From sequence record MN508624.2: 64,000 nucleotides of DNA. One strand, written 5' to 3'. The notes below the pieces were generated by a model. That model had not been told where the DNA came from and ran no database searches. It was given only the letters and a program-made list of their open reading frames with translations. A program made the translations under genes and the position numbers. This document shows positions 3,936-38,309 of this stretch, in pieces; position 1 is the stretch's first letter, and the number at the start of each line of letters is the position of its first letter. This DNA comes from Enterobacter phage EC-F2.

Positions 3936-3959
3936 GTTCTCGTTCCTTTTGGCTGTTCC

Positions 3960-4012
3960 GTTTCGATATGTGTAATATAACAAAGCCCTCACGCGAACGC
4001 AAGGGCTTTTTT
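3960..4012 (-). promoter_or_regulatory. PeSL-type cassette #1: stem-loop with embedded sigma70-like early promoter and conserved leader
   Basis: Read on the minus strand: AAAAAAGCCCTTGCGTTCGCGTGAGGGCTTTGTTATATTACACATATCGAAACGG. The -35 TTGCGT lies inside the stem, then a 17-nt spacer, then the -10 TATATT. The leader runs to the SD AAGGAA and the ATG at 3935. Confidence 0.55.
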
Positions 4013-4015
4013 GGA

Positions 4016-4669
4016 TTAACTGAATTTATTATAGAGAGTAAAATTAATCCCTATAGAATTCAGTGCTTTACATGTTGCATCAAGATCTGTTGGTTCGATT
4101 TCGATGATGTATTTCAACGCTGTGTTTACTGGAATGGTTTCTGGTTCTTCGAAAGATGCCAGGGTTGGTGCTTTCACCGTTTCTGGTTCAGCAAGCACGG
4201 TTTTCTTTACGTCAAACGCTTCTTTGAACTTGTTGATTCTTTTTAGCAGGTCATCAATCAATTCGATGTTAGCTCCGTCGAATTGTCTGGTTTGTTCCAG
4301 CATACTCGTAATCTTTCCGTATGTAGTGCGTCTGGTTTGTTCCGTGTAATTCCCGACTTCATAACGGTCGATCCGGTCGATGATTGCCCGAATGTGTCCA
4401 AGATTAGCGCGATCGAAATACGCAATCAGCTTAGATTTTCTGAACACGAACATATATGGAGCATTACCGACAATGTAATGAGTTGCCGTTAGACCAAAAC
4501 TAGGATCGATCAGAATTTTAACCGTGTTGAAATACGGGATTAAATTTATTTCACGTTCAGGTAAACGGAAAACTTCATCTTTAAAGTTCTTCCCAATCCG
4601 GTCGATCTCTTCCAGAGTTTTACCCATCATCGACGAAATTATTTCAATTTTTTTAGATACATAAGCCAT
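4016..4669 (-). CDS. hypothetical protein (217 aa)
   Basis: First ORF of the transcription unit after PeSL #2... no, after PeSL #1 is passed, reading downstream. No motif recognised. Confidence 0.45.
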   Translation of the reverse strand: MAYVSKKIEIISSMMGKTLEEIDRIGKNFKDEVFRLPEREINLIPYFNTVKILIDPSFGLTATHYIVGNAPYMFVFRKSKLIAYFDRANLGHIRAIIDRIDRYEVGNYTEQTRRTTYGKITSMLEQTRQFDGANIELIDDLLKRINKFKEAFDVKKTVLAEPETVKAPTLASFEEPETIPVNTALKYIIEIEPTDLDATCKALNSIGINFTLYNKFS

Positions 4670-4687
4670 TTTTCAATTCTCATTTAA

Positions 4688-4978
4688 TTAATGCATAAAA
4701 GATTTGACGTACTTCACGATTTCTTCACGACACATATCGACCGGAGTATCCTCAGCAATAGCAGCATGACAGAAGATTTCACCATCCAGCCAGAACGATA
4801 GCATGTACTGAATATCCCGACCTTCGTTTTCTTTCTGGTGTTTCTTGATGCGATCAAATGCATCATCCATGCTTTCGGTAGCTGTAAGCATTTCAGATTC
4901 ACCCGCTACAGCAGCCATTTCCCCAGCTTCATCACTGAATTCGCTTTCCAGTTCTTCCCAGTATACTATCGTTATCAT
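4688..4978 (-). CDS. hypothetical acidic protein (96 aa)
   Basis: ORF rich in Glu and Asp. Confidence 0.35.
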   Translation of the reverse strand: MITIVYWEELESEFSDEAGEMAAVAGESEMLTATESMDDAFDRIKKHQKENEGRDIQYMLSFWLDGEIFCHAAIAEDTPVDMCREEIVKYVKSFMH

Positions 4979-4981
4979 GGA

Positions 4982-5122
4982 TTACCCCAAACAGATTTTA
5001 CATTTACAGAGAGGACATTCCGCCTCTTTAACGCGCAAGCGCTTTGTTGCTGTTCGCTTCGCTGTGTTGTGATCATACACATGCAAACAGCGATAACAGA
5101 TCACCAATCGTTTAGCCGTCAT
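4982..5122 (-). CDS. hypothetical Cys-rich mini-protein (about 46 aa, MTAKRLVICYRCLHVYDH...CPLCKCKIC)
   Basis: Found by manual translation; it is below the 60-aa cut-off of the supplied track. It has a C-x2-C...C-x2-C-x-C-x2-C zinc-ribbon-like pattern. Confidence 0.25.
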   Translation of the reverse strand: MTAKRLVICYRCLHVYDHNTAKRTATKRLRVKEAECPLCKCKICLG

Positions 5123-5579
5123 AACCACCACCGCAACGAACATCACCTTCAATGAACAGTTCGCGGTTATCTCTCAGGAGATTGTATTTCTTTTCGAGTT
5201 CCGGCCCGAATGCGTCCGCGTCGTCATACCAGTCATAGTCATAACTTCCGGTTTCATCGTCGTATTCCGGTTCGTCGCCGCGCTCATTGAAGTGAACGAT
5301 TTTAACATCATCCAGATTCAGTTCTTTCAGCTTGTCCCAGATGCGGGTTATTTCGACGCTATTACATCCGAACGCTTCCAGTGTGATTGTGCCGTCATCG
5401 TGTATTTGAGGTAAATCCCAGCGAGGACGAGTATCATCAAACATATCCATCAGAGATTCAACGTTTGACTCACCGTAAATCTTTGCAACTTCCTGTTCTT
5501 TACCAGGGCGGACAAGTCCGACCCCGATGATAAAACTACTGCTTGAGCTATTGCTAACGAACCCAGAACGAATCTTCAT
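5112..5579 (-). CDS. hypothetical protein, 'MKIRSGFVSNSSSSSFI' family paralog A (155 aa)
   Basis: Its N-terminal 17 residues are identical to those of ORF 9017-9529. The acidic C-terminus carries YDYDWYDD motifs. Confidence 0.5.
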   Translation of the reverse strand: MKIRSGFVSNSSSSSFIIGVGLVRPGKEQEVAKIYGESNVESLMDMFDDTRPRWDLPQIHDDGTITLEAFGCNSVEITRIWDKLKELNLDDVKIVHFNERGDEPEYDDETGSYDYDWYDDADAFGPELEKKYNLLRDNRELFIEGDVRCGGGYDG

Positions 5580-5767
5580 CGTCTTGCCTCATATTTCGCG
5601 TTCTCCGCGATTTTCTCATGATACAGGTTGTATGACAACACCAGCGGGATACAAGCTACTATAAGCCCGATGATAGCCAGTTGATATTCGCGTTTATCGA
5701 ACGCCATGAATGTAATCGTAGCGCCCAGAATAAACACACCTAACGCAATGATGAAGAATAATGTCAT
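5576..5767 (-). CDS. small membrane protein (63 aa, two predicted TM helices)
   Basis: Two hydrophobic segments: FFIIALGVFILGATITFMAF and LAIIGLIVACIPLVLSY. Confidence 0.4.
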   Translation of the reverse strand: MTLFFIIALGVFILGATITFMAFDKREYQLAIIGLIVACIPLVLSYNLYHEKIAENAKYEARR

Positions 5768-6390: not shown

Positions 6391-6407
6391 ATTATTTTCC
6401 TCAATAT

Positions 6408-10267: not shown

Positions 10268-10283
10268 AATAACTTCCTCACGA

Positions 10284-10305
10284 AAAAAGCCCCTTTCGGG
10301 GCTTG
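10284..10305 (-). terminator. terminator hairpin AAAAAAGCCCCTTTCGGGGCTT
   Basis: GC stem with a TTCG-type loop and flanking A/T runs. Confidence 0.55.
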
Positions 10306-10310
10306 ATTAA

Positions 10311-10589
10311 TCAGTGTCCGAACACACCACGGATAGACTCTGCGAAAGCGTACAGTTCAGGGTTTTTCGCTTTCACTGTTTCGATTTGTTCCAGGATGTA
10401 ATCTGGTTTGTATTTCGCACCGAACCAGCAGTAAGAGAAAGAACGATCCCACATGAACACGTTGTAGTATTCACCGTTACGCACTTCAACCATCACGTAA
10501 CCTGGATTAGAACCCAGCGGGTAATCTTTCAGGAGATTGAATTTCGCACCAGCGCCAGTACATCCGTTAAACAGGTCATTAAAAGTCAT
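10311..10589 (-). CDS. hypothetical protein (92 aa)
   Basis: ORF only. Confidence 0.35.
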   Translation of the reverse strand: MTFNDLFNGCTGAGAKFNLLKDYPLGSNPGYVMVEVRNGEYYNVFMWDRSFSYCWFGAKYKPDYILEQIETVKAKNPELYAFAESIRGVFGH

Positions 10590-10630
10590 GGTATGTTCCT
10601 TTTCAGTTTCGTTTCAACAAGGCCAATATA

Positions 10631-10850
10631 TTACACTTCGTTAAACCATGCAAGATATTTCTTCTCTTGTCTGTTCAAAACGTCATAACAAGAGGCGACA
10701 CAAACGGTTTCCCACACAACTTCATCGTAAGCATTCACGAAGCGAATGATCAGAGTTTTGCCATTAGTCATCAAAGCCGGAGTGAACCCAAGTTCTTTAA
10801 CCGCTTTTACTTTCTTCTGGAATAACGCTTTAGTCATGTTAGCCATTTTG
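10631..10850 (-). CDS. hypothetical protein (about 73 aa, start MANMTKALF)
   Basis: A strong RBS AAGGAGGCACAAA precedes the ATG at 10850. Confidence 0.4.
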
Positions 10851-14758: not shown

Positions 14759-14949
14759 TTAAATTCTTCCATTGCATAGGAAGTAAGATCTTTGAAATAC
14801 CTTGCGGTGTTGCCTTCTGGGTTGTTTGTAATCTCCATCAGGATAACAGCACCATCAACTCCTGCTTTCTTAGCCATGAATGAAATGGCTTCGGTAGCAA
14901 TAATCGTTGCTTTCATAACATCAGCTTTAGAAACGTTGATCGTATTCAT
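14755..14949 (-). CDS. hypothetical protein (64 aa)
   Basis: First ORF downstream of PeSL #2. Its RBS is AAGGAAGAAAA. Confidence 0.35.
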   Translation of the reverse strand: MNTINVSKADVMKATIIATEAISFMAKKAGVDGAVILMEITNNPEGNTARYFKDLTSYAMEEFK

Positions 14950-14964
14950 TTTTCTTCCTTTTCA

Positions 14965-15026
14965 TTATTCATGCGGTATGTGTATATAATACAAAAGCCC
15001 TCACGCGAACGCAAGGGCTTTTTTAA
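14965..15026 (-). promoter_or_regulatory. PeSL-type cassette #2 (identical hairpin to #1)
   Basis: Read on the minus strand: AAAAAAGCCCTTGCGTTCGCGTGAGGGCTTTTGTATTATATACACATACCGCATGAA. The -35 TTGCGT, a 17-nt spacer and the -10 TATTAT are present. The hairpin also terminates the upstream NatV-like gene. Confidence 0.55.
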
Positions 15027-21570: not shown

Positions 21571-21975
21571 TTAAGCCCCTACGCGCACAAAGCGATCTTC
21601 AATTGCATCATTAACACATTCGTAAATGCTAACGTCATTCGGGACGTGCTTACGAATACCCACTTTCACGATATCCATGATCTCTTTGTTGCTACCCCAC
21701 ACGTTCAGGTTGAAGTAAACACCGCCGCTATGAATTGTGTTGTTGCCAACATCAAGATACGTATCTTGACTTTCGCAGATAAACAGTTTGCGTTTTTCTT
21801 CACCATATGCGAAGTAAATGCTGAAAGATTCCATGCGATGACGATCGACCGTGATGGTGTCTACTTTAACCTTTGGATCTTTGTTCAGTTCGTCCAGCAC
21901 ACCCTGAATGATGTGCAGCATGTTAGGCTTGATGATAGTTGGATGACTGGTAATAACTCGATGTGATGTGCTCAT
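21571..21975 (-). CDS. hypothetical protein (134 aa)
   Basis: First ORF downstream of PeSL #3. Its RBS is GAGGATTAAATT. Confidence 0.4.
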   Translation of the reverse strand: MSTSHRVITSHPTIIKPNMLHIIQGVLDELNKDPKVKVDTITVDRHRMESFSIYFAYGEEKRKLFICESQDTYLDVGNNTIHSGGVYFNLNVWGSNKEIMDIVKVGIRKHVPNDVSIYECVNDAIEDRFVRVGA

Positions 21976-22008
21976 AATTTAATCCTCAATAGTTGGTACA
22001 CACATAAT

Positions 22009-22041
22009 AAAAAAGCCCCTGCGAAATTGCAAGGGCTTTTT
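22009..22041 (-). promoter_or_regulatory. PeSL-type cassette #3
   Basis: Read on the minus strand: AAAAAGCCCTTGCAATTTCGCAGGGGCTTTTTTATTATGTGTGTACC. The -35 TTGCAA lies in the stem, with a 17-nt spacer and the -10 TATTAT. Confidence 0.5.
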
Positions 22042-22042: not shown

Positions 22043-22693
22043 TCAGATAATGCGTTTTTCTTCTAACAGCTTCGCGGTATGGTTAACCATGCGAGCGTAA
22101 TCACGGGCTTCTTTCTTTGAATACTTGAATCCCGCGTTGTAACTCGCCAGCGCCTTTTTCAAGTCGCCTTTGTGGTAATCAAGCCAGTATTCCAGTTCGT
22201 GAAGTGCATACTTGGAACCACCCCGAAGGGTTTCGAGCTTATTGATTACTACGCGTTTGGAATATGATTTATCCATTCGTGCGGACGCGCTACGGGCTGT
22301 TACTTGAAAACAACCATAAGCATGATGATTCTTTTTGCCTTTCCCTACGTTCTCACATGCGCGAGACTCGATCCAGGCAATAGCCGCTAAATGATATCCC
22401 AAACGTTTCGATGTTTCCGATTCAACTGGCTTTGCAGTTTTGAGATCGTATTCGTTACCGATCCTGAAAGCGTACTCCAAAACCTTTTTCTGCTTTGGTG
22501 TAATATCATCCAATTCCTTAACATAACTGGGGGCATTGGCTGGCGCTTTCTTCATTACTGTTGCTTGTTGTAGCGGTAAAGTTGACTTCACAGAAGGGAG
22601 TGTTTGGATAAACTCTCCTAACGGATCAGTCGCCGCGTTGCCAGAAAAAGAGCATAAGGCAACAACAAAAGGTAGTATCCATTTGAATTTCAT
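22043..22693 (-). CDS. lytic transglycosylase (SLT domain) with N-terminal signal peptide
   Basis: The signal peptide is MKFKWILPFVVALCSFSGNA. The SLT motifs are AIAWIESRA (catalytic Glu-Ser), GCFQV and ASYNAGF. Confidence 0.65.
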   Translation of the reverse strand: MKFKWILPFVVALCSFSGNAATDPLGEFIQTLPSVKSTLPLQQATVMKKAPANAPSYVKELDDITPKQKKVLEYAFRIGNEYDLKTAKPVESETSKRLGYHLAAIAWIESRACENVGKGKKNHHAYGCFQVTARSASARMDKSYSKRVVINKLETLRGGSKYALHELEYWLDYHKGDLKKALASYNAGFKYSKKEARDYARMVNHTAKLLEEKRII

Positions 22694-23229
22694 GGGCTTT
22701 CCTTATTATAAAAAGTTCCAAAATTTAACAACGCTGATTTTTTATACACATTACTTGCTTCTTCGGGATCATCAAAAGAACCGAGATATGTCACTTTACC
22801 ATACAATGTTATTTGCGCAATCCATTTTTGGTTTGAGCTATTCCATGTAACACCAGTAAATCCAGAAGTGTTGTTTTTCTGCATACCTTTCTTTTGTGAA
22901 TTTTGTGTGTTGGTTACTTCTTGTAAGTTTCTAATACCATCACCAAAAGCAACGCCTTTTTTATGATCTATCATGACAGGGAGATTGCCAGTAGAAACAT
23001 AATAGACTATTCGATGTCTTCTAAGCTGTTTTCCTTTGAAGTTTATAACTGTGTATCCGTCCTTTCTTAGTGTTCCTGCAACAGAACCAATTTTAATCTT
23101 TCTATTGGTTGATACAGTCCATACACATAGTCCGGTTGACGTATCAACACTAATATAGTTAAGTAATTCGTCTATCAGGTCTTTTTCTTCTGATAGCGTT
23201 CTTTCTCCCCATCCATAAGATTTCTTCAT
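22690..23229 (-). mobile_element. free-standing HNH homing endonuclease with AP2 DNA-binding domain (#1)
   Basis: The HNH core reads RHRIVYY...VMIDHKKGVAFGDGIRNLQEVTNTQN. The AP2 domain reads SGFTGVTWNSSNQKWIAQITLYGKVTYLGSFDDPEEA. It is a paralog of 25613-26137. Confidence 0.65.
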
Positions 23230-24256: not shown

Positions 24257-25603
24257 TCAAAAATTGTCTTCAACAAAAGCTGCAAGTCGCCCACGATATA
24301 CGGTATCCAGGATCACATGACTTGAATGACCGTACTCTTTAAGTTTTTCAACCGCATACACAAAGCCGTTGTTAACAGCAGTATTGCGCGGGTTGTCAAT
24401 CTGTTTAATGTTCCCGCATAGTATCAGAAGGGTGTTCTCACCGCAACGGGAAATGATGGATTTGATTTCGTGATTGCTCAAGTTTTGACATTCATCAACA
24501 ATCAGAACCGAACCTTTACCCGGATCAGGATGCCCGATTGAGCGCCCACGGAAGTAATACAGGCTAGGGAACTGGACAACGTTTTTCTCCAGCAGCCCTT
24601 CTACGTATTTGTCAACTTCCGGTTGATCCTTAAACAGAATGTTCAGGCTCGTAATACATGGTTCTACAGCAGGACGCAGTTTTTCGCCAAGAGTACCAGG
24701 TAAGAACCCGATTTCGCCCGACAGAGGGCTATCTGCCTTGACATACATCAGGTTTGCGAAGTGTCCCGCGTTTACCATGTGCATTGCACCAGCAACAGCC
24801 AGCATGGTTTTACCTGAACCCGCCGCGCCCATGATGGTCACAACGTCATTGTTTTTGTCCAGAATAGCATCAACGAATGACGCTTGCAGAGCATCGCGAG
24901 GCTGGATTGTTTTCATCAGCTTACGCTTTAACGCCTGTTCGTGCTTAATAGGCAACACTTCAAGCTGAAACTCTCCAGCATTCACCACACGCCCTACAAT
25001 CTCACCACACGATAGAATGTATTGGTTAGGGTAGAAATCCGCGTCAGGAAGCGATGAATACGTTATAACGGCAACAGGCCCGACATACTCCAGGACTTCA
25101 ACAGTTTCCCAGAACAGAGGCAGGTCGATATAACCTGAATACAACACATCACTATCTTTCAGCGAGTCATCGCCAGTGTATTGAAGAACCGAACAACCTT
25201 TAGACATCGCGATCAACAGCATGTTAATGTCACGAGTCACCAGAGTTGCGCCCTGCTGAATACAAGTTGCAATGATCCGCACATCCTGTTTATCCAGAGG
25301 GAATTCTTCGGTGCCGTCATAATCGACGATTTTCAGTGTTACGCTTTCCGGTACTGCTGGGTTCGATAAGTTTAACGAAACCCCTGTTTGGGTAATTGCT
25401 TCATAATTTTGTCCCAGGATTGCTTTGGACAAAAGCCGGATCGCCAGTCGTGCTTCATGAGCGGTTCGCTCTTTGCTTTTCAGGTGATCCAGTTCTTCCA
25501 TCGTTGCAGCGGTGATAATGATTTCGCTGTCAGGTTCGATGTAAGAATAGATTGAATATGGGTTACTAATCAAAACATTGGTGTCTAATACGTATTTTGA
25601 CAT
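24257..25603 (-). CDS. phoH: PIN-domain / PhoH-like ATPase fusion protein (PhoH2/YlaK-like), 448 aa
   Basis: The N-terminus VLDTNVLISNP marks a PIN domain. The C-terminal PhoH ATPase carries Walker A TIMGAAGSGKTMLA and Walker B VLIVDECQNLS. Confidence 0.7.
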   Translation of the reverse strand: MSKYVLDTNVLISNPYSIYSYIEPDSEIIITAATMEELDHLKSKERTAHEARLAIRLLSKAILGQNYEAITQTGVSLNLSNPAVPESVTLKIVDYDGTEEFPLDKQDVRIIATCIQQGATLVTRDINMLLIAMSKGCSVLQYTGDDSLKDSDVLYSGYIDLPLFWETVEVLEYVGPVAVITYSSLPDADFYPNQYILSCGEIVGRVVNAGEFQLEVLPIKHEQALKRKLMKTIQPRDALQASFVDAILDKNNDVVTIMGAAGSGKTMLAVAGAMHMVNAGHFANLMYVKADSPLSGEIGFLPGTLGEKLRPAVEPCITSLNILFKDQPEVDKYVEGLLEKNVVQFPSLYYFRGRSIGHPDPGKGSVLIVDECQNLSNHEIKSIISRCGENTLLILCGNIKQIDNPRNTAVNNGFVYAVEKLKEYGHSSHVILDTVYRGRLAAFVEDNF

Positions 25604-25612
25604 ACATTAACC

Positions 25613-26137
25613 TTATGTGGTTTCGTTAAAAAATGTGCCGAAAACCTCTTTCGCTTTCCGGTCATAAACGGCTTTTGCTTCTTCTGGAGTGGTATAATAC
25701 CCCAAAAATTTTCTTTTTCCATCTATGTTTATCTGCGCTTTATACTTCCCATTTGCTTTGTGATAAGAAACACCTTTCAACCCCGTACTGCTGTTTGAAT
25801 TACATTTCTTTTTCATCGCGTTTTGTTGGTTCGTCGCTTTCTGTAGATTTCTTGCTGTATCTCCATTTTCAACACCATGCACATGATCTACGATAGGAGG
25901 AAGATAACCATTCTCAACGTAAAACACTATTCGGTGTCGCAAATACATAGAACCTTTAAAATGAATTTGGGAATACTCGTTCTTGCTTCCGGCTTCACTT
26001 CCAGGAGACATAGGGCCGCGCTGAATTTTCCAATACACTTTTCCCGTAGATGTATCAACATCTACATAACTCAGAAGAGACTCAATCCCTTGAATCTCTT
26101 CCTGTATGGTTCTTGATGAATAACCATGACTTTTCAT
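25613..26137 (-). mobile_element. free-standing HNH-AP2 homing endonuclease (#2; start probably MKSHGYSS)
   Basis: The HNH core reads RHRIVFYVENGYLPPIVDHVHGVENGDTARNLQKATNQQN. The AP2 domain reads TGLKGVSYHKANGKYKAQINIDGKRKFLGYYTTPEEA. Confidence 0.6.
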
Positions 26138-26607
26138 TACATACCCAAACGGATAATATGGATATATGGGAACGGGTGAAGATGACTTGAACGCATACAC
26201 AAGGTCAGCGTTTTTGCCAGTTCAAACCGTTCGTCGATCGTCGTGTCACATTCATCGAAAATCAGGTTGATTGCCTGATACTTGATCGTTTGTCCACGGA
26301 AAATGGTATTCAGATCTTGTTTTTTCGACAGAATGAAAGACGAATCATCGCCCTTATCCAGTCCATGTTCTGTCGCAGCACAAATACCCATTTGCTTTGT
26401 CGGTGCAACGTAGATATTCAGTGTCCCTTTCGACTGCTTGATGATATCGAAAGCTGCTTTGGTTTTACCCGACATCCGGCCCATATCCAGCGCAGTTTCG
26501 AAAATAGACACACCGCCGCATTCTTGCCCCCAACGCCCATCAATGATTCGCGCAAGGTGCAGGTTACGTGACTGCTTTACAGCGTCAACATAGAATTGTG
26601 AAATCAT
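26137..26607 (-). CDS. P-loop ATPase fragment (Walker A, SF1-helicase-like motif Ia, Walker B; then frame decays), possibly a truncated gene
   Basis: GRMSGKTKA is Walker A, YVAPTKQMG resembles SF1 motif Ia (compare Dda AAPTHAA) and LIFDECD is Walker B. The ORF terminates about 20 aa later, inside the start region of the HNH gene. Confidence 0.35.
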   Translation of the reverse strand: MISQFYVDAVKQSRNLHLARIIDGRWGQECGGVSIFETALDMGRMSGKTKAAFDIIKQSKGTLNIYVAPTKQMGICAATEHGLDKGDDSSFILSKKQDLNTIFRGQTIKYQAINLIFDECDTTIDERFELAKTLTLCMRSSHLHPFPYIHIIRLGM

Positions 26608-27863: not shown

Positions 27864-27890
27864 CCTACAAAAAAGCCCCTTTCGGGGCTG
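27864..27890 (-). terminator. terminator hairpin AAAAAAGCCCCTTTCGGGGCTGGG
   Basis: GC stem with a TTCG-type loop. Confidence 0.5.
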
Positions 27891-31690: not shown

Positions 31691-31942
31691 TCATTTGATA
31701 CGTACCGCGTTAAAAGCCTGGTTGCGCAGTTCATAAGCCTGTTCAAGCTGTTCAGTAGTGAACAGAGGGCTATCGGTATTAGTGGTGAAACTACAAATGG
31801 TTTTGTTGTCGGCGTTGACTTCTTCAACAACGATTTCATAACCCCATGCCCCACTGTACTCACATTTCACGTTCCGGTACTTGATGTAAACTGCTGCAAC
31901 ATCTTCTTTTTTGTAGTTCCGGCTTTTGTAGATGATTTCCAT
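31691..31942 (-). CDS. hypothetical protein (83 aa)
   Basis: Preceded by a PeSL-like leader CACACATCGAAACGAAGGAGGAAATC. Confidence 0.4.
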   Translation of the reverse strand: MEIIYKSRNYKKEDVAAVYIKYRNVKCEYSGAWGYEIVVEEVNADNKTICSFTTNTDSPLFTTEQLEQAYELRNQAFNAVRIK

Positions 31943-31996
31943 GATTTCCTCCTTCGTTTCGATGTGTGTACAATAACAGATCAGGGTTATGGAGTT

Positions 31997-32170
31997 TTAG
32001 CAATTCGTGCTAATTACAGTAGCATTTCCATTTGCAACAGAACGCTCCAGGGATTCGGCGGTAACAGTGAATTCAGGGAACCATTGACCGATATTGCTTG
32101 ACCACCACCAGACATTCACGCCGTCAGTTTTGAATTCGATGTTCAGGTAGTTACTGAAAATATGTTTCAT
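31997..32170 (-). CDS. hypothetical Trp-rich protein (start MKHIFSNY)
   Basis: ORF. The internal start is preferred. Confidence 0.3.
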   Translation of the reverse strand: MKHIFSNYLNIEFKTDGVNVWWWSSNIGQWFPEFTVTAESLERSVANGNATVISTNC

Positions 32171-32180
32171 GTTATTCCCC

Positions 32181-32459
32181 TTATGCCATTTTCTTAGCGA
32201 TTTTCCATGCGGCTTTGAACGCTGGAACATCTTCAACATCAACCCAGAAACCAGAACCGAAACCATCGTTGTAGCAAGGGCAACCGTCGCAGTAGTTTTC
32301 CCAGGTCATCACTTTACCACCAACAGAAGCACCAGTTTCCATCGCACGTAATGCATCTTCAACTTTTTCCAGTTTTTCTGCATTGTCGTCATAAATGATG
32401 AAGTACCATTTGCCGTTGTATTCGTTACCCAGTTTGATTGCTTCGCGAACAAGTTTCAT
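32181..32459 (-). CDS. hypothetical protein (93 aa, MKLVREAIKLG...)
   Basis: The ATG at 32459 follows the conserved leader CAGAGAAAGGAAAACATC. The upstream in-frame extension would enter the hairpin. Confidence 0.45.
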   Translation of the reverse strand: MKLVREAIKLGNEYNGKWYFIIYDDNAEKLEKVEDALRAMETGASVGGKVMTWENYCDGCPCYNDGFGSGFWVDVEDVPAFKAAWKIAKKMA

Positions 32460-32535
32460 GATGTTTTCCTTTCTCTGTTTCGTTTCGATGTGTGTAATAT
32501 AACAAAAGCCCCTGGCGGTTGCAAGGGGCTTTTTA
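32460..32535 (-). promoter_or_regulatory. PeSL-type cassette #4
   Basis: Read on the minus strand: AAAAAGCCCCTTGCAACCGCCAGGGGCTTTTGTTATATTACACACATCGAAACGAAACAGAGAAAGGAAAACATC. The -35 TTGCAA, a 17-nt spacer and the -10 TATATT are present. Confidence 0.55.
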
Positions 32536-32546
32536 AACAAAAAGTG

Positions 32547-32792
32547 CTATTTTGTTTCTTCGAGGATTCGAAGGATTTCGGCGCGGGTGATTGGATGTTT
32601 TGCCAGCTCACGGATCGCGTGGTCAACGTGTATCTTACACATCAAAAACTTCTCCCCGCACTTGTCGCATGTTGCATACATATCGCCATGTATACGCCCG
32701 ATTGCATCAGTCACCCAATAACGCATCCATGCATAAGGAGTTCCCCGCATCCATCCGGTAGCAACATGATTGCATTTACGTTTACCGAACAT
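32547..32792 (-). CDS. hypothetical Cys/His-containing protein (81 aa)
   Basis: ORF with CDKCG and CKIHVDH. Confidence 0.35.
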   Translation of the reverse strand: MFGKRKCNHVATGWMRGTPYAWMRYWVTDAIGRIHGDMYATCDKCGEKFLMCKIHVDHAIRELAKHPITRAEILRILEETK

Positions 32793-32793
32793 A

Positions 32794-33396
32794 TCACCAC
32801 CCGTTAGGATTGCGGAAATGGGTTTGCCAGTAGCGCAGTTGTTCGCGGTTCATGTTTTGGTTATCAATCACCATACCCTGAATCATCTGCAACATCATGC
32901 GGGTTTGATTGACATCCTCCAGGCTCGCTATACGCTGTTTTAAGGCTTTGTTTTCCTCTTCTAACTCAACCATACGGTTGTATGCGTTGACGCGCTCCAG
33001 AGGCATATCAGGGCGCTCTTTGAGGACACGGGCGCGGGATACTTCGCATTCGTGATTTGCTTTCCAGTGCGCGGCTTCTGATTCTGCTTTTTGCTTGTCT
33101 CGAAGCGCGAGTGACAGATCGCTAACCAGATCCAGAACCGTTTGCGGATCTACGGTTTCCAGATATTTTCCGAGACCCTCTTCCCAGCTTTTAATCTGTG
33201 TAGGGCTGTCGCCATATGGAACACCATATGAGAACGCGCGTTTATACTCTTTGCCCCTGAAACCATATTCCTGATTTCCCTGGATGCTCATATTTTCAAC
33301 GAGAGTCCACTTACTACCCATCATAGAAGAAATCGAACGGGCTGATTTTTCAATTTCTTCAAGTTTTTCACTTGTTACTTTCATTTTGTACTCCAC
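32794..33396 (-). CDS. hypothetical coiled-coil protein (200 aa)
   Basis: ORF with heptad-rich stretches. Confidence 0.4.
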   Translation of the reverse strand: MEYKMKVTSEKLEEIEKSARSISSMMGSKWTLVENMSIQGNQEYGFRGKEYKRAFSYGVPYGDSPTQIKSWEEGLGKYLETVDPQTVLDLVSDLSLALRDKQKAESEAAHWKANHECEVSRARVLKERPDMPLERVNAYNRMVELEEENKALKQRIASLEDVNQTRMMLQMIQGMVIDNQNMNREQLRYWQTHFRNPNGW

Positions 33397-33797
33397 AAAT
33401 CATATTGTGCGCGAAGGATAGCGTAAAGGCTACCGATATTGATTGAATCGACCGGACACTGGAACAAATCAGAGCGCATCATATTGAACTCAATATTGTT
33501 CTGTTCAACGAAGTTACCGATCATTGATGTCCAGCCCATCACCAGGTTATATCCGTCTTCGGATAACCCGTAAGCTAGGTTAACCCTGATACAACGCTTA
33601 TCAGCCAGTTCTACGCTGATACAGTTACTTGAATGCATGGAATTGCATGGGAATTTGCTAGGAAACTTACGGAACATCTGGGTAAGGAGTTTAGCCGTTT
33701 CAATGTTGATTGCGCGTTCCTGATCCCTTTGCGCCTGGTTGTCATGACGGCGATTCAGATACTTTTCCATTTTTGGGTTGAGATTCACATGTTGCAT
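33381..33797 (-). CDS. hypothetical protein (138 aa)
   Basis: ORF only. Confidence 0.35.
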   Translation of the reverse strand: MQHVNLNPKMEKYLNRRHDNQAQRDQERAINIETAKLLTQMFRKFPSKFPCNSMHSSNCISVELADKRCIRVNLAYGLSEDGYNLVMGWTSMIGNFVEQNNIEFNMMRSDLFQCPVDSINIGSLYAILRAQYDLWSTK

Positions 33798-34006
33798 AAT
33801 ATATTCCTCACAGGTTTAAAGCGTTCTTTTCCGGTTCCATTACATGAACTGCATTTCGGAGATCGGTCGCTATCATATCGCCCCGATCCGTTACATGCAA
33901 CACATTTCCGTAATTTCCAGCCATACACGAACCGCATGTAATAATCGGTTCGTGCGGCCTTGCGTTCGTGGAAGTTCATACTTTGTTGTAAACCTGAACC
34001 AGCCAC
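33785..34006 (-). CDS. small protein with DnaJ-type CxxCxGxG zinc-finger repeats
   Basis: CVACNGSG and CSSCNGTG form two CxxCxGxG repeats. Confidence 0.4.
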   Translation of the reverse strand: MAGSGLQQSMNFHERKAARTDYYMRFVYGWKLRKCVACNGSGRYDSDRSPKCSSCNGTGKERFKPVRNILCNM

Positions 34007-34179
34007 ATTTCGATGTTCGGCGCGTAAGTAACGTTTACCATCGGCATAGTGCGGTATTTGTAAGCGGCTTTGTATGCTTCCAGTTCGGTCGCAACACAGA
34101 AAGAGAAACCGTTGTCATAACGTTCGGCGTTAGCAACTTCACAACCAACAACAGCAGCAATGTTTTTGTTCATGTTCAT
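33976..34179 (-). CDS. hypothetical protein (67 aa)
   Basis: First ORF downstream of PeSL #5. Its leader is AGAGAAAGGAAAATCATC. Confidence 0.4.
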   Translation of the reverse strand: MNMNKNIAAVVGCEVANAERYDNGFSFCVATELEAYKAAYKYRTMPMVNVTYAPNIEMWLVQVYNKV

Positions 34180-34255
34180 GATGATTTTCCTTTCTCTGTT
34201 TCGTTTCGATGTGTGTAATATAACAAAGCCCCTGCATTACTGCAAGGGCTTTTTT
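34180..34255 (-). promoter_or_regulatory. PeSL-type cassette #5
   Basis: Read on the minus strand: AAAAAAGCCCTTGCAGTAATGCAGGGGCTTTGTTATATTACACACATCGAAACGAAACAGAGAAAGGAAAATCATC. The -35 TTGCAG, a 17-nt spacer and the -10 TATATT are present. Confidence 0.55.
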
Positions 34256-34259
34256 GATA

Positions 34260-34565
34260 TTATTCGAAATTTTCCGGCAATTGATCTACAAGTGCTTGAG
34301 TTTGATGAAGTTCTTCACTCAATTTATCGCGATAATGAACCAGTTCGCGGGTTCTTGCCGCTGAATAGCTAATGATTTTATCAGCAGTAGCGGTGTACCC
34401 GTAGCCGGAACACGCAATTTCCAGCTTTGCATTATCACCGTTAGGTACGCGGATATGAGCATAACCAAGCAGGTTTTTAACCGCTTGCAACAGGTCATGA
34501 TCTTCTTTACCGATGATAAACTGGTTTGGTTCTACTGAATCAATAAGTTCTTCGTCTTTGTTCAT
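34260..34565 (-). CDS. hypothetical protein (101 aa)
   Basis: ORF only. Confidence 0.35.
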   Translation of the reverse strand: MNKDEELIDSVEPNQFIIGKEDHDLLQAVKNLLGYAHIRVPNGDNAKLEIACSGYGYTATADKIISYSAARTRELVHYRDKLSEELHQTQALVDQLPENFE

Positions 34566-35074
34566 TTTGCAGCCTTATACATTTCCAGGACGCGGTTCAT
34601 ATGCTCTTGTGATTGAGGCACACCCGCGAAGTTCAATTTGATGAAGAATTCCAGACGATCCTTTTTGGTACATTCATCCAGCCCCAGGGCAGGTAATGAC
34701 ATGTTTTCAAAGGTTCGCTGTTCGTGTCGTGGCAATTCGTCCCAGAACAATCGGGAACCGTCCGGCATAGGAAGACCAATTTCACCTTCGTAAAATTTGA
34801 TAATCGTTGTCAGGCGTTGTTTGCCGTCGATGACTTCTACCCAGTGAGTTTCATTAAACTGACTATCAACCGCGATCGCGATGACACCACAAGGGAAACC
34901 AGTCATTAACGTAGTCAGGAATGCATCTTGCTCTTTCTGCGTCCACACATAGGGGCGCTGATAGGATGGATTCAGATCCAGATCGTTATGCTTCCACCAG
35001 TTGAGATAGCTCCCAACCATGATCGCGACTGCGAAAAGTTCGGAGTTCCCGAAGTCGGTTATGTATAATTTCAT
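34562..35074 (-). CDS. DUF262 / ParB-like nuclease-NTPase-domain protein (170 aa)
   Basis: YQRPYVW and the motif VIDGKQRLTTI (the DGQQR signature) are typical of the DUF262 / GmrSD N-terminal domain. Confidence 0.45.
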   Translation of the reverse strand: MKLYITDFGNSELFAVAIMVGSYLNWWKHNDLDLNPSYQRPYVWTQKEQDAFLTTLMTGFPCGVIAIAVDSQFNETHWVEVIDGKQRLTTIIKFYEGEIGLPMPDGSRLFWDELPRHEQRTFENMSLPALGLDECTKKDRLEFFIKLNFAGVPQSQEHMNRVLEMYKAAK

Positions 35075-35412
35075 CAGACATGATTAATCACCCATCCCAA
35101 CAAACCAGTATTGATAGCCGCAACGGTAAAGCAGATCACAGCCAACACCCGCGCGTTGTGTACTTTGGTTTTCAGTTCTGCGATCTCCTGATCCTTTTCA
35201 CTTTCGAACTCGTCACGGGTTCCATAGTAACCAGGATCAGCAGCGGTTGCGATACGCACCTTATCGGTTTCGAAGAGTGTTGATTTGCCATGATCAACGC
35301 CAACCACACCCAGAATACCATCACGATCGGTATTCACGATCCCGTGCTTTCCGGCTTCGGCATATTTGCCGTTCTTAATGGTAACTACACGATCGCCAGC
35401 TTTGTAAGTCAT
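35074..35412 (-). CDS. hypothetical protein with C-terminal TM segment (112 aa)
   Basis: ORF with the hydrophobic tail LAVICFTVAAINTGLLGWVI. Confidence 0.35.
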   Translation of the reverse strand: MTYKAGDRVVTIKNGKYAEAGKHGIVNTDRDGILGVVGVDHGKSTLFETDKVRIATAADPGYYGTRDEFESEKDQEIAELKTKVHNARVLAVICFTVAAINTGLLGWVINHV

Positions 35413-35417
35413 AATAA

Positions 35418-35783
35418 TTACTCTTTCACGTTTTGTTGTAGGAACTCTAACAGCTTTCCTTCGGCCTGTAAAGCATAAAGTTTATTCAGCTTTGCTATGT
35501 TCTCAAAGTCTGATTTTTCGCTGAACGACCAGACACCATCATCGGAAACCAGCGCACCAACCGATACGCCAGTTTCAGGATCACGCGTCAACGCCAGCCC
35601 CAGGGGATGTAGGATATCTTTATTGATTTTCCAGATCAACCCCAATTGAGATAAGGTGTTGAAATCAACGTGACTCATTAGGCATCGCACCGAATGACAA
35701 CAGCCCCATACGATGATCGTTATCTGATTCACCAGTGCTGAATTCAAATTCTTCACCGCTGATACTGATAGCACGGAAACCAT
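35418..35783 (-). CDS. hypothetical protein (start uncertain; overlaps next ORF in another frame)
   Basis: ORF only. Confidence 0.25.
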   Translation of the reverse strand: MVSVLSVSAVKNLNSALVNQITIIVWGCCHSVRCLMSHVDFNTLSQLGLIWKINKDILHPLGLALTRDPETGVSVGALVSDDGVWSFSEKSDFENIAKLNKLYALQAEGKLLEFLQQNVKE

Positions 35784-36060
35784 CTTTCAGGTACGGCAAC
35801 AGATACAGAGGGATCAGCATCATTTTTGAATCGTCATCCCACTTACGGAAGCCCAGGTTTTTCATTTCTTCCAGAGTCAGGTCATTTGGATCGACTGGTT
35901 CGAAATCAGGGGAAGCGTAAAGGCGTCCTGGAAGATCGCGAATATTTTTCACGGTGAATGAATCACCCCATGACTTATACGCGATAGGTTCAGCGGCGCG
36001 GGTTGCGGTAGCCAGAAGGATCATTTGGCAGATTTGGAAAGTAGTTGCTTTTGGTTTCAT
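35665..36060 (-). CDS. hypothetical protein with probable signal peptide (131 aa)
   Basis: N-terminus MKPKATTFQICQMILLATATRAA. Confidence 0.35.
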   Translation of the reverse strand: MKPKATTFQICQMILLATATRAAEPIAYKSWGDSFTVKNIRDLPGRLYASPDFEPVDPNDLTLEEMKNLGFRKWDDDSKMMLIPLYLLPYLKDGFRAISISGEEFEFSTGESDNDHRMGLLSFGAMPNESR

Positions 36061-36470
36061 GATGTATATCCCACAAGTTTAGTCAGTAAATTCCCCATAG
36101 TCTTACGCGCATGATCGCGGATCTGGCTATACGGAACATATTTGAAGTCATCCATTTCAGTAATGGTTCGACCATTTTTAACGAAGGTTGAAGCACAAAC
36201 ACATTTTTCTGCTTCGGGGTAATTATTACCCACATATACGAATAACACAAGCTCTTTTTTACTCGTATAATCAATCAGACCCAGGCTCAACAGTTCGTGT
36301 TGTTCAACTACAACGCCCGTTTCCTCGAAGCATTCACGGATAGCAGCATTGATCGGGGATTCGCCTTTTTCGATATGCCCCTTTGGGATGTCCCAATGAG
36401 GCGTTTCGGTTGCGTGGCCCATTAAAACGCTGCCGTTATTCAGGAAGAGAATACCAGCAGACCGTTCCAT
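36057..36470 (-). CDS. Nudix hydrolase
   Basis: The Nudix box reads GHIEKGESPINAAIRECFEETGV. Confidence 0.7.
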   Translation of the reverse strand: MERSAGILFLNNGSVLMGHATETPHWDIPKGHIEKGESPINAAIRECFEETGVVVEQHELLSLGLIDYTSKKELVLFVYVGNNYPEAEKCVCASTFVKNGRTITEMDDFKYVPYSQIRDHARKTMGNLLTKLVGYTS

Positions 36471-36715
36471 TACTGTGCTCCGAACTTACGATCGTATGCT
36501 GCCAGCGCTTTATCTGCTGCATCAACTGCCTGAGTGTGTTTGTTAGCGGATTTCTCGCTGAACACTTCGCGGTAAATGGCAACCCAGAGGGATCGGCGGG
36601 TCTGTTCGCTTTCTTCATTGACGCGAGAAGCCGCAAAAGCGTTATGTTCTTTGATCAGTTGTGCGAATTCAGCATCATGATCAATGGTTTGTTGTTGAAT
36701 AGCTGTAGAAGTCAT
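36470..36715 (-). CDS. hypothetical protein (81 aa)
   Basis: ORF only. Confidence 0.3.
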   Translation of the reverse strand: MTSTAIQQQTIDHDAEFAQLIKEHNAFAASRVNEESEQTRRSLWVAIYREVFSEKSANKHTQAVDAADKALAAYDRKFGAQ

Positions 36716-36978
36716 AATTCACCTATTTCTTTCAGTTCAGTTTTGAGTTTTTCGAGGGTTGATTGGTACTGAATGCCGTTCACAATGTCGTTGCGTCGGG
36801 CATAATACAGCGTACCAGTTTTGTTTATCTCTGCCAACACTTCTTTATCGAGTTTATCAGGTTCATTGCTAAATGCAATCCTGAACATTTCTTCGGCGTT
36901 CGGCGCGAATCCGTTACAGAACGTGATACCGAGTTTCGGATCGAAGAATATCAGGGATACTTTATTCACTTTTTCCAT
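36712..36978 (-). CDS. hypothetical protein (start probably MEKVNKVS)
   Basis: ORF. The internal start avoids a 137-nt overlap. Confidence 0.3.
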   Translation of the reverse strand: MEKVNKVSLIFFDPKLGITFCNGFAPNAEEMFRIAFSNEPDKLDKEVLAEINKTGTLYYARRNDIVNGIQYQSTLEKLKTELKEIGEL

Positions 36979-37264
36979 AATGTTCTTCGTAATCCTCGCA
37001 TTCTGGGAGATAGGTTTCGCAGAACATACACAGCGTGAAGAATGTAGGCTGGCGAATTCCGATATTATCGGGTAAGTACATCCAGAACGTGTTAGCAAAC
37101 ACGATGAACGTTTTCAGGTTTTCAACGGTTACGGTACTGATACCGTCATAACCGGATTGAGTAATTGCGCGTTCCAGGGGAACAGGGTATTGCTCGCAGT
37201 AGTTGGCGTAATGTTCGCTTGTCACCAGCGCATTAGCCGCTTTTACGAGATCGGTAATTTTCAT
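36962..37264 (-). CDS. hypothetical protein (100 aa)
   Basis: ORF only. Confidence 0.35.
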   Translation of the reverse strand: MKITDLVKAANALVTSEHYANYCEQYPVPLERAITQSGYDGISTVTVENLKTFIVFANTFWMYLPDNIGIRQPTFFTLCMFCETYLPECEDYEEHYGKSE

Positions 37265-37527
37265 TCAATATATCCCCAACGAATTTTTACGTTATCTTCT
37301 GACGCCGGACTTGTAGGAGTCGGGTACGGATAGCTTTGCGCTTCCCACAGATAAACAACAGCATGTTTTGTCAATTCTTCGATAACTTCATCGAAAGTAC
37401 CGACACTGGTTTGTAAAGGCAACGAGAAAGGTTTATCGTTGGTTTCTACTTGAGCGATTGGCCCATCTACCAAGATAACACGAACCGTTGTGTGCTCAGA
37501 CATATGAGCATAGATTTTGTTTTTCAT
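37261..37527 (-). CDS. hypothetical protein (88 aa)
   Basis: ORF only. Confidence 0.35.
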   Translation of the reverse strand: MKNKIYAHMSEHTTVRVILVDGPIAQVETNDKPFSLPLQTSVGTFDEVIEELTKHAVVYLWEAQSYPYPTPTSPASEDNVKIRWGYIE

Positions 37528-37862
37528 GCGGGTACATATTCCACTTTGACAGGTTTTGCGATAAGGCGTTCTTTAGTGAAGCCTTGCCCGTTACAGATAT
37601 CACAAGTAACATTGAAGTCTTCCATCTGATCAACCCAGCCAGAATCCGGTAAGCCAGAAGGATACGTGTTAACACGTTTGACTTCGAACCCTTTACCCTC
37701 GCATTTCGGGCATTTGTGTGGGTACTGGGATTTAACCATACTCAGCAGTTGCCCCAGCGTTGTTGAACGATCGAAGCGTTCGACCAGTGCCATTACATCA
37801 GCAATACGAATCGAACCAGCATCAATAACGGTATACAGGTTTTTCGGTACATTTGAGCGCAT
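37524..37862 (-). CDS. zinc-ribbon protein (about 113 aa, CPKCEGKG...CDICNGQG)
   Basis: Two CxxCxGxG-like pairs. The start is MRSNVPKN. Confidence 0.35.
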   Translation of the reverse strand: MRSNVPKNLYTVIDAGSIRIADVMALVERFDRSTTLGQLLSMVKSQYPHKCPKCEGKGFEVKRVNTYPSGLPDSGWVDQMEDFNVTCDICNGQGFTKERLIAKPVKVEYVPA

Positions 37863-37872
37863 AGTATATTTC

Positions 37873-38013
37873 TCACTTAAAAAATTTTTTGATGAAAGAG
37901 AGGAACAATCCACCACCGAACATGATCCAGTATCCCGCGCCGTCACCGTTAAACAGGACATACACAGCGACACCATAGCAAAAGATTTCCGCGATATTCA
38001 GTAAGTTTCTCAT
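37873..38013 (-). CDS. hydrophobic mini-protein (46 aa, MRNLLNIAEIFCYGVAVYVLF...)
   Basis: Found by manual translation. A strong RBS AAAGGAGGGAGTT precedes it. Confidence 0.3.
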   Translation of the reverse strand: MRNLLNIAEIFCYGVAVYVLFNGDGAGYWIMFGGGLFLSFIKKFFK

Positions 38014-38058
38014 AACTCCCTCCTTTGTCTACACCAGGTATTTTACCAGAAAGTAGAT

Positions 38059-38223
38059 TACTGTCAACAACAAAGTTTTATCAACCCACTTATCACCAGT
38101 CATTAGTAATCCCCTACAGGTTGAGAAGATGCAACGCTCAGGATACGGAAAGAGCATTCATTCCATTTGCAATAAGTTTTCGCACAGTGAACAGTGCCTT
38201 TCATTACAAACCCGTTTGAGAAC
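38059..38223 (-). CDS. hypothetical Cys-containing mini-protein (about 55 aa, MKLYWLVFSNGF...)
   Basis: First ORF downstream of PeSL #6. Its leader is GAAACAAAGGAGGCAATC. Confidence 0.3.
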
Positions 38224-38235
38224 ACCAGCCAGTAA

Positions 38236-38290
38236 AGTTTCATGATTGCCTCCTTTGTTTCGACACCCCTAATATAACAAAAGCCCCTGC
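38236..38290 (-). promoter_or_regulatory. PeSL-type cassette #6
   Basis: Read on the minus strand: AAAAAAGCCCTTGCATTAGTGCAGGGGCTTTTGTTATATTAGGGGTGTCGAAACAAAGGAGGCAATC. The -35 TTGCAT, a 17-18-nt spacer and the -10 TATATT are present. Confidence 0.5.
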
Positions 38291-38309
38291 ACTAATGCAA
38301 GGGCTTTTT

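Follow-up and report, generated by a model that had tools for sequence, protein, structure and literature searches.

Six intergenic cassettes of an RB43-group phage, predicted to combine an early promoter with a terminator hairpin, form a clade-specific version of the PeSL elements

The 64,000-nucleotide (nt) stretch of Enterobacter phage EC-F2 analysed here (sequence record MN508624.2; this whole stretch is hereafter called the window) carries on its minus strand six copies of a compact cassette, c1 to c6, which very likely represent the version of the promoter-early-stem-loop (PeSL) elements proper to the RB43 group of T4-like phages. In about 45 bp each would unite an early promoter with a terminator, the occasional recombination of one cassette with another being a by-product. 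We base this reading on the anatomy of the loci, on the stability and covariation of their hairpins, on their synteny across two genera, and on recombinant junctions found in natural genomes. Enterobacter, Cronobacter and Klebsiella phages match the window at 94-99% identity; those whose annotated records were consulted (phi5, EC-W2, Cronuts, Miller and others) are Straboviridae of the genus Pseudotevenvirus, RB43 group, and the window is itself a Pseudotevenvirus.

Hairpins were located by a regular-expression scan of both strands of the whole window, and their coordinates are given here on the plus strand. Those of the TTGC type number exactly six, all in minus orientation, in agreement with the first-pass annotation, which had announced at least six. 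A narrower pattern had 0.00 chance matches expected in shuffled sequences, and an unbiased repeat search returned the cassettes as its top three, that is largest, direct-repeat families (D1-D3). Overall the family is larger: the whole genome of the close relative EcL22g holds 9 strict copies and at least 3 variants. All six cassettes, as well as two half copies described below, lie within the minus-strand early block at 3-41 kb—nearly all genes between about 2985 and 41040 are on the minus strand—and none is found in the late-gene parts (about 26 kb) of the window.

The common module reads A5-6-GCCC(C)TTGC-loop-GGGGC/GAGGGC-T3-6, then (TGn)TATATT or TATTAT, a leader, a Shine-Dalgarno sequence (SD) and an ATG. 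In c1 (3933..4012, minus strand like all the following) the hairpin covers 4012-3982, the -35 hexamer TTGCGT 4002-3997 and the -10 box TATATT, preceded by TGn, 3979-3974, with the ATG at 3935-3933. c2 (14947..15024) has its hairpin at 15024-14993, TTGCGT at 15014-15009, TATTAT at 14991-14986 and the ATG at 14949-14947; c3 (21973..22041) has a hairpin with a 6-nt loop at 22041-22009, TTGCAA at 22032-22027, TATTAT at 22009-22004 and the ATG at 21975-21973. For c4 (32457..32534) the corresponding positions are 32534-32504 (hairpin), 32524-32519 (TTGCAA), 32501-32496 (TGn and TATATT) and 32459-32457 (ATG), and for c5 (34177..34255), whose loop is a GNRA (GTAA), 34255-34225, 34245-34240 (TTGCAG), 34222-34217 (TGn and TATATT) and 34179-34177. 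Finally c6 (38241..38310) shows a hairpin at 38310-38279 which overlaps the stop codon of the upstream gene, TTGCAT at 38300-38295, TGn and TATATT at 38276-38271, a short GTCGAAACAAAGGAGG leader, and the ATG at 38243-38241.

The hexamers and boxes are those that had been proposed, while other points of the first description had to be redrawn. The -35 had been placed in the downstream arm of the stem; on the transcribed strand it starts in the 5' arm and extends into the loop, and it is the 3' arm that forms the spacer. This spacer, given as 17 nt throughout, has that length in c1-c5, but 18 nt in c6. The limits set for c6 (38236-38290, and 38292 as the end of the series) cut the 5' half of its hairpin, which reaches 38310. 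A conserved leader had been attributed to every copy: the long form, ACACAYATCGAAACGRAACAG...AAAGGAA, is limited to c4 and c5 and, less well preserved, c1; a shorter form, GTCGAAAC(A/G)AAGGAGG, is common to c6 and to the degenerate copy at 31943-31996, and the leaders of c2 and c3 are their own, unrelated to the others. The identity claimed for the c1 and c2 hairpins is exact over 31 nt. The longest exact run, 43 nt, is shared by c4 and c5; most other pairs share 13-20 nt, and c2/c4 and c3/c4 10-11 nt.

As for their position, all six cassettes occupy intergenic spacers of 66-87 nt, between the stop codon of the upstream minus-strand gene and the SD and ATG of the next one, and in each of them an A5-6 tract stands 4-5 nt 5' of the TTG. 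c2 sits directly 3' of a gene with cytidylyltransferase-like and NUDIX domains; given these domains, its product fits a nicotinamide mononucleotide (NMN) adenylyltransferase/Nudix protein of the "NatV" type. c3 sits directly 3' of a gene with an SLT transglycosylase domain (Vs.1-like), which had been thought to begin a block. Since it precedes c3, it closes the unit that c3 would terminate. Most of the genes flanking cassettes have no assignable function, and the claim that the cassettes separate blocks of different function is unsupported.

The hairpins are stable as RNA, with GC-rich stems of 12-13 bp. Their folding energies are -18.0 (c1), -18.9 (c2), -21.2 (c3), -19.2 (c4), -20.4 (c5) and -20.3 kcal/mol (c6), with z-scores of -4.39, -4.51, -5.54, -4.21, -4.94 and -4.50 respectively, and none of 200 shuffles was equally stable. 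Among terminator-like sites, c2 ranks first and c1 second in a scan of 1-20 kb; from 20 to 40 kb c6 is first, c3 second and c5 within the top three. Termination by these hairpins is a prediction from sequence, and so would be any estimate of its efficiency.

From relatives, RB43 and IMG/VR contigs 51 distinct copies were collected, each folded separately and anchored on the TTG. Compensatory pairs occur at three stem positions (GC in 40 copies and CG in 10; AT in 45, GC in 5 and CG in 1; AT in 24, CG in 7 and GC in 6), and opposite the TTG of the -35 the pairing varies between Watson-Crick and wobble. In a same-register alignment of 21 tetraloop copies the covariation score was 0.263 against 0.139 in shuffles, none of 500 reaching it, and fell to 0.05 or less when the partners were slid. 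RNAalifold run on a MAFFT alignment of 38 copies returned no structure, the differing loop lengths putting stem variants in different registers. The copies of RB43 also show a compensated stem change, from AGCCC...GGGCT to ACCCC...GGGGT. Tetraloops close 36 of the 51 hairpins, TTCG and GNRA being prominent. In the window and its relatives the loop of c5 is GTAA, GCAA or GAAA, always a GNRA tetraloop, and those of c1, c2 and c6 are TTCG, TTCT or TTAG; this constancy across phages suggests that the type of loop may be under selection in addition to the stem.

Read as DNA, the boxes agree with TTGACA/TATAAT at 8-9 of 12 positions, which is within the range published for nt-1/KVP40 and weaker than RB49. 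A TGn extended -10 is present in c1, c4, c5 and c6. Over the 51 copies, the -10 box is TATATT in 38 and TATTAT in 8, TG occupies -15/-14 in 35, and the spacer measures 17 nt in 38 and 18 nt in 13. The early-promoter consensus of RB43 is A-rich at -40 to -44 (Nolan et al. 2006, PMC1524935); the position of the cassette A-tract and a C at -36 agree with it. The RB43 group has neither a motA gene nor a middle-promoter consensus, so that sigma70-type early promoters are the class to be expected. A middle-promoter reading of the TTGC... motif as a MotA box was considered and rejected: TGCTT is absent, its distance to the -10 is that of a -35, and motA is missing from the group.

These features lead to the following proposal. 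As DNA, the stretch of about 45 bp would act as an early promoter of the host sigma70 type, in which the A5-6 tract would lie at the place of an UP element (about -45 to -40), the -35 would be the TTGCnn within the palindrome's 5' arm, the 3' arm would provide the 17-18-bp spacer, and the G-interrupted T-run would give the extended -10 (TGnTATATT) or TATTAT. Transcription would start about 7 nt beyond the -10, in ACACAC or GGGGTG, giving a short, A-rich and presumably unstructured leader with the SD 6-9 nt before the ATG. As RNA arriving from upstream, the same DNA would form a hairpin of 12-13 bp, GC-rich and mostly closed by a tetraloop, which with the U-rich tract would stop transcription right after the preceding gene. 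The cassette's own transcript would not contain the hairpin, and the cassette would therefore insulate the upstream unit from the unit that it drives, each copy ending one early unit and starting the next. Being dispersed direct repeats, the copies might occasionally be crossed over by the phage recombination system, with deletion or exchange of the genes between them.

The architecture matches the published definition of PeSLs in each of its sequence-level elements, as had been proposed. Arbiol et al. (2010, PMC2839356) describe them as intergenic: the preceding stop codon lies in an A/T-rich region, two sigma70-like boxes are separated by about 17 bp and accompanied by a stable stem-loop, and SD and ATG come last. 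The stem-loop may sit between the boxes or overlap either of them, and PeSLs cluster in hyperplastic regions and recombine with one another. In the cassettes we find the intergenic location with its stop codon, SD and ATG, the UP-like A-tract, the sigma70-type boxes, the restriction to the early block, and a stem-loop belonging to the subclass where it overlaps the -35 and occupies the spacer. The cassettes are thus a clade-specific member of the known PeSL family.

Part of this was already at hand. Nolan et al. (2006, PMC1524935, Additional files 3 and 6) listed 43 RB43 early promoters predicted by a hidden Markov model (HMM) trained on T4-type early promoters. By sequence reading, the orthologues of the six cassettes are among them: Pe:67362 (c1), Pe:79242 (c2), Pe:85900 (c3), Pe:95419 (c4), Pe:96875 (c5) and Pe:100921 (c6), with HMM scores of 17.4-31.2; the remark "1 bp ins" attached to Pe:100921 agrees with the 18-nt spacer of c6. 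Nested in four of them are terminators to which TransTerm gave 100% confidence, at 67332-67352 (c1), 85869-85890 (c3), 95389-95409 (c4) and 100890-100911 (c6), and further RB43 early promoters enclose terminators, for example Pe:4005, 11463, 12201, 26374, 157530 and 178646. The promoter and terminator predictions stand in separate tables, and the passages of the paper that were consulted do not point out their overlap, the repeat family or a role in recombination. "PeSL-like sequences" of RB43 are mentioned by Arbiol et al. (PMC2839356) only at the g43 locus, as data not shown, and we found in the searchable literature no explicit description of PeSLs for Pseudotevenvirus or Slopekvirus. Thus the orthologues in RB43 were known, separately, as six predicted promoters and four predicted terminators; new here are the fixed and fully overlapping layout, the covariation of the hairpin, three genomes with cassette-by-cassette deletions, and a swap of an open reading frame (ORF) within a cassette.

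Several observations weigh against a promoter at these sites, and some of them speak for the cassettes being intrinsic, possibly bidirectional, terminators only, in which an A-tract, a GC stem, a T-tract and an AT-rich leader would incidentally yield promoter-like boxes. The -35 agrees with TTGACA at just 3-4 of 6 positions. Sigma70 scoring, which the first-pass annotation had proposed as a check, went only partly its way: a consensus scan calls c3 (9/12) and c4 (9/12, with TG) and leaves the other four uncalled, with no excess of promoter-like sites over shuffles. Stronger stand-alone promoters with TTGACA lie nearby at 17243, 28226 and 38067, and stand-alone terminators also occur in the region (10304, 16256, 18011, 27889 and 39529), so that the phage uses the composite cassette alongside other designs. 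Such sites bear no annotation other than "terminator" in the records of Miller, Margaery, CfP1 and Matisse (in Miller at positions matching c2, c3, c4 and c6, in the other records once, under the c6 region), and searching the literature gave no transcript-level data for Pseudotevenvirus or Slopekvirus. Besides, the hairpin core AAAGCCCTTGC-N10-GGGCTTT is common as a plain terminator in unrelated phage contigs of IMG/VR; the core alone is not diagnostic of the cassette, and the invariance of TTGC in the collected set is for this reason no independent evidence for a -35. That set was moreover chosen for TTG, TAnnnT and a hairpin, so that the invariance of these features and the 100% pairing are partly by construction. 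Termination in the minus direction is itself open to objection: the U-tract is interrupted there (TTTGTTATATT), which should weaken it, and the plus-strand reading has a cleaner, perfect T6 tail.

Other features are not those of terminators alone. The T-run of the cassettes is broken exactly where TGn, hence TGnTATATT, arises, whereas plain terminators of the same window keep an unbroken T4-6. Downstream of each of the 9 strict hairpins of EcL22g come a -10-like box, SD and ATG, the box being 17-18 bp from the TTG every time; among 136 matches to the same hairpin core in IMG/VR contigs a -10 box follows in 48, most of these in T4-like contigs, and few non-T4-like matches have it. Where paralogues carry unrelated leaders, their similarity stops at the last base of the -10. 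A copy without hairpin (10653-10625) keeps TTGCAT-N17-TATATT and the leader. SD and ATG come directly after each cassette of the window, and all six RB43 orthologues score as early promoters in the independent HMM, in the tables cited above. Altogether we consider it unlikely that the cassettes are terminators and nothing else, and retain the composite of promoter and terminator, of which the promoter activity and its early timing are predicted from the boxes and their context.

The exchange of genes at cassettes is documented by natural genomes. Synthetic junctions, i.e. sequences existing only after cassette-by-cassette recombination, were searched in 50,697 phage records. The c4xc5 junction was recovered as one uninterrupted alignment in the Cronobacter phages leB and Banach (91% coverage, 94% identity): in leB, the sequence passes from the upstream flank of c5 through a 5' arm of c5 type (A6GCCC) into the c4 loop (AACCGCC), followed by the 3' arm, leader and gene of c4, and Banach differs by a switch at the A-tract/stem border and by its 5' arm, GCCCC instead of GCCC. 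The c5xc6 junction is present in a single piece (97% coverage, 79.5% identity) in Klebsiella phage vB_KpnM_Tauntaun_ER47, where the upstream flank of c6 and a c6-type hairpin (loop TTCG) are joined to the leader and gene of c5. In this way a five-ORF block bounded by c4 and c5 (32535..34224, minus strand) is absent as a unit from leB and Banach, and the roughly 4-kb block that lies between c5 and c6 (34256..38278, minus strand) from Tauntaun_ER47, whose genome measures 170.7 kb against 174-177 kb for records of Slopekvirus size. Both blocks are present in RB43, Miller and Slopekvirus contigs; the events are therefore deletions in leB/Banach and in Tauntaun.

A different exchange affects c2. 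In Kp_GWPR59 and Miller its hairpin is kept, and a new -10 box, a c6-like leader and another first ORF follow it, with crossovers at 14984-14992; in phi5 the crossover is at 15023. The replacement ORF has no detectable similarity to the ORF of the window. No recombinants of the c1xc2, c2xc3, c3xc4 and c4xc6 junctions were found among the same records. As controls, two junctions were built from non-cassette spacers lying similarly far apart, and neither had an exact match. A control match at 62% coverage, in Klebsiella phage KP13MC5-1, was set aside as a different 4-kb Slopekvirus indel with both ends inside ORFs. In this Slopekvirus, positions 1703-1705 bring together window positions 28279 and 32252, both within ORFs, and about 4 kb of the window, including the radical-SAM gene region, is missing. 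Likewise, an apparent c4/c5-type leader at c6 in leN, Dev_CS701 and YI837 was an alignment extension through the similar hairpin, the c6 of leN being ordinary.

The repeats were expected in relatives, and they are there, in conserved order. In a panel of eight relatives (phi5, EcL22g, EC-W2, ENT3, Cronuts, BHU20, Kp_GWPR59 and Miller) the six cassettes are at orthologous positions in most, and all copies are syntenic across Pseudotevenvirus and Slopekvirus, with the same neighbour gene on at least one side. In Miller the strict pattern missed c1 and c5, which are probably represented by variant-stem copies in that locus. EC-W2 is without c5 because of a multi-gene deletion of 2956 bp (window 33038..35995; EC-W2 about 34017-34024), which is not bounded by cassettes and whose junction is an 8-nt microhomology (GGCGCGGG) inside coding sequence. 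In IMG/VR contigs c2 always follows the NMN adenylyltransferase gene, and what lies downstream of it varies; for c5 it is the upstream side that varies, one and the same small ORF coming after it each time; and c1, c3 and c6 are conserved on both sides. c6 with its two flanks is intact in 167 of 178 related records.

The idea that blocks between cassettes are gained or lost as units, offered by the first-pass annotation, finds support, as regards loss, in leB, Banach and Tauntaun and in the crossovers inside cassettes; it does not extend to a general enrichment of breakpoints. The seven closer relatives show 27 unique boundaries, and cassettes are touched at c2 only. Counted over these phages, 1 of 6 cassette junctions is hit by a breakpoint against 18 of 81 others, and 2 of 6 against 35 of 81 when Miller is included (Fisher p about 0.8). 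Most indels of the panel have other causes, including ORFs resembling HNH endonucleases and microhomology deletions. As junction hits are not enriched in the eight-phage panel, the cassettes are not general recombination hot spots.

Two ORFs of the window illustrate these other causes. Those at 22690-23229 and 25613-26200 (minus strand) carry HNH_3 and AP2 domains, with Pfam scores below the curated cut-offs, and look like HNH+AP2 homing endonucleases; they are the largest window-specific insertions, 22658..23221 being missing from all eight relatives and 25597..26136 missing or replaced in four (phi5, EC-W2, Miller, Kp_GWPR59).

Could the hairpins be targets of a dedicated structure- or site-specific recombination or nicking, thus programmed exchange sites comparable in spirit to integron attC? 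The crossovers do fall inside cassettes, and the one in leB lies within a short identity of the 5' arm (about 10-15 nt) rather than in the 43-nt run of -10 and leader; Arbiol et al. raised such a possibility for GGGG...CCCC stems (PMC2839356), and the HNH endonuclease-like ORFs are located in the same region. However, the crossover sites differ from one event to the next: the 5' arm in leB, the A-tract/stem border in Banach, the interval from loop to -10 in Tauntaun, and a point after the hairpin in c2. Such variation disfavours a fixed cleavage site and fits homology or microhomology better. The absence of hot spots in the panel, the rarity of cassette-by-cassette deletions (3 of about 180 genomes) and the existence of similar multi-kb deletions at an 8-nt microhomology devoid of cassette point in the same direction, and we regard programmed exchange as highly improbable. 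A related proposal, that the hairpin as cruciform or single strand is recognised by a phage nuclease or the replisome and directs exchanges in place of general homology, seems to us very unlikely as well; were it true, it would mean a dedicated gene-cassette system, loosely attC-like, which reshuffles early accessory genes while keeping their expression. For exchange between cassettes we prefer another reading, in which the phage is highly recombinogenic and its dispersed direct repeats would recombine incidentally.

One could also think of a selfish miniature element, similar to miniature inverted-repeat transposable elements or repetitive extragenic palindromes (MITE- or REP-like) and spreading by itself in the genome, since there are several dispersed copies with a palindromic core and near-identical pairs (the c1/c2 hairpin, the c4/c5 leader), but we give this hardly any credit: the copies are syntenic across Pseudotevenvirus and Slopekvirus with a common neighbour on at least one side, their strict number is stable at 4-6 per region in all relatives with no new insertions, target-site duplications are absent, and every copy is in the transcribed orientation exactly between stop codon and SD.

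Besides the six full cassettes, two half copies deserve mention. The degenerate copy at 31940..31996 (minus strand) had been recognised at 31943-31996 as keeping only the leader, and this holds: hairpin and -35 are lacking, TGn and TATTGT stand at 31975-31970, followed by the cassette-type leader ACACACATCGAAACGAAGGAGG and an ATG at 31942-31940. It is bordered by a 164-bp indel (32016..32181) in three relatives, Cronuts, Miller and Kp_GWPR59. The second is the hairpin-less promoter of cassette type at 10587..10653 (minus strand), with TTGCAT at 10653-10648, a 17-nt spacer, TATATT at 10630-10625, the leader GAAACGAAAC...AAAGGAAC and an ATG at 10589-10587. Seven of the eight relatives have a different ORF upstream of it, with a crossover at 10615-10639, between -10 box and leader (Cronuts is without the region). 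In these seven another promoter, AAAAAAGTG-TTTGCAT-N17-TATCTT or TATATT, is fused to the same leader, and a remnant resembling it is found in the window at 10883-10851. The region looks like a module exchange at a half cassette.

Plain hairpins of the form AAGCCCC...GGGGCTT were found by pattern scan at 2961, 10283, 16234 and 42087, and by the repeat search at 27869. Two of these plain terminators, 10283-10303 and 27869-27889, share a 21-nt identity (AAAAAAGCCCCTTTCGGGGCT, plus strand) and have no embedded promoter; their stem base AGCCCC/GGGGCT is common to the cassettes. At 18011-17975 (minus strand), upstream of an rI-like gene, a terminator hairpin AAGGGGCGATTCGCCCCTT is directly followed by TTTTTTGCTATAAATA, which is the T4-type late promoter motif (TATAAATA); on its sequence this is a putative terminator-plus-late-promoter composite, a late-mode counterpart of the early cassettes. 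The divergent intergenic region of 200 bp at 41040-41240, which separates the minus-strand early genes from a plus-strand gene, contains a long imperfect inverted repeat (RNA fold of -61.9 kcal/mol) around an AT-rich core with TATAAATA-like motifs. In two late-gene regions, at 1240-1297 and 60796-60853 (plus strand), a module AATAAGGGGCGAAAGCCCCTTTTGAGG...ATGATT, composed of hairpin, ribosome-binding site and start codon, is repeated (family D4); its hairpin family (GGGGCGAAAGCCCC) differs from that of the early cassettes. An Rfam scan of the whole window matched no family.

These results extend the PeSL concept to the RB43 group (Pseudotevenvirus and Slopekvirus), a clade which includes many Klebsiella, Enterobacter and Cronobacter phages under development for therapy. 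The base-resolved natural deletion junctions in three sequenced phages are evidence that the original papers lacked for this clade. On the other hand the idea of PeSLs as drivers of plasticity is tempered, the cassettes being here mainly stable regulatory landmarks, and most differences in gene content arising elsewhere, by insertions of endonuclease-like ORFs, microhomology deletions and exchanges at ordinary promoters. For annotation they are useful as marks of likely early transcription-unit boundaries. They also indicate natural cut points: the accessory blocks 32535-34224 and 34256-38278 are evidently removable without killing the phage.

The closest known systems are the PeSLs of other T4-type phages. 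Those of RB49 and phi1 are, like the cassettes, intergenic, with boxes about 17 bp apart, a GC-rich stem-loop between the boxes or overlapping the -35, and a location in early accessory regions; there too, recombination of neighbouring copies removes the ORFs between them, with crossovers in or next to the stem-loop. Their boxes come close to a perfect TTGACA/TATAAT, and their G(n)-loop-C(n) stems occur at five different positions, whereas the RB43-group version keeps one fixed layout, a weak -35 (TTGCnn), apparently offset by the TGn extended -10, and a GCCC...GGGC stem; it has fewer copies (about 12 per genome), whose positions are much more stable. Promoter, terminator and mini-circle activities have been shown by experiment for RB49/phi1; for the present cassettes the first two are predicted from sequence. 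The leB/Banach and Tauntaun deletions are what a genome would be expected to retain once a mini-circle had been excised between neighbouring cassettes. The consensus of nt-1/KVP40, an A3-4G3-loop-C3T3-4 stem with TTGYVH-N17-TAWWAT (Comeau, Arbiol and Krisch 2014, PMC4122927), is nearly the same formula as that found here, A5-6 GCCC-loop-GGGC T3-6 with TTGCnn-N17-TATATT/TATTAT, and the degraded "half" PeSLs of the same authors resemble the copies at 31943-31996 and 10625-10653. Published figures for nt-1, KVP40, PST and T4 show the stem-loop immediately 5' of the promoter; in the present cassettes the -35 is inside it and the spacer is part of it. Those four phages are Schizo-T-even and T-even, whereas the present one is of the RB43 group.

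A more distant parallel is offered by the "morons" of lambdoid phages, accessory ORFs with their own promoter and terminator which, like the ORFs bracketed by cassettes, can be gained or lost without disturbing their neighbours. Morons are single insertions of deviant GC content with unrelated flanking signals. A contrast between morons and the ORFs of T4-like phages is drawn by Nolan et al. (2006). Unlike morons, the RB43-group phages reuse one conserved composite signal at many junctions, and this signal itself supplies the homology for exchange.

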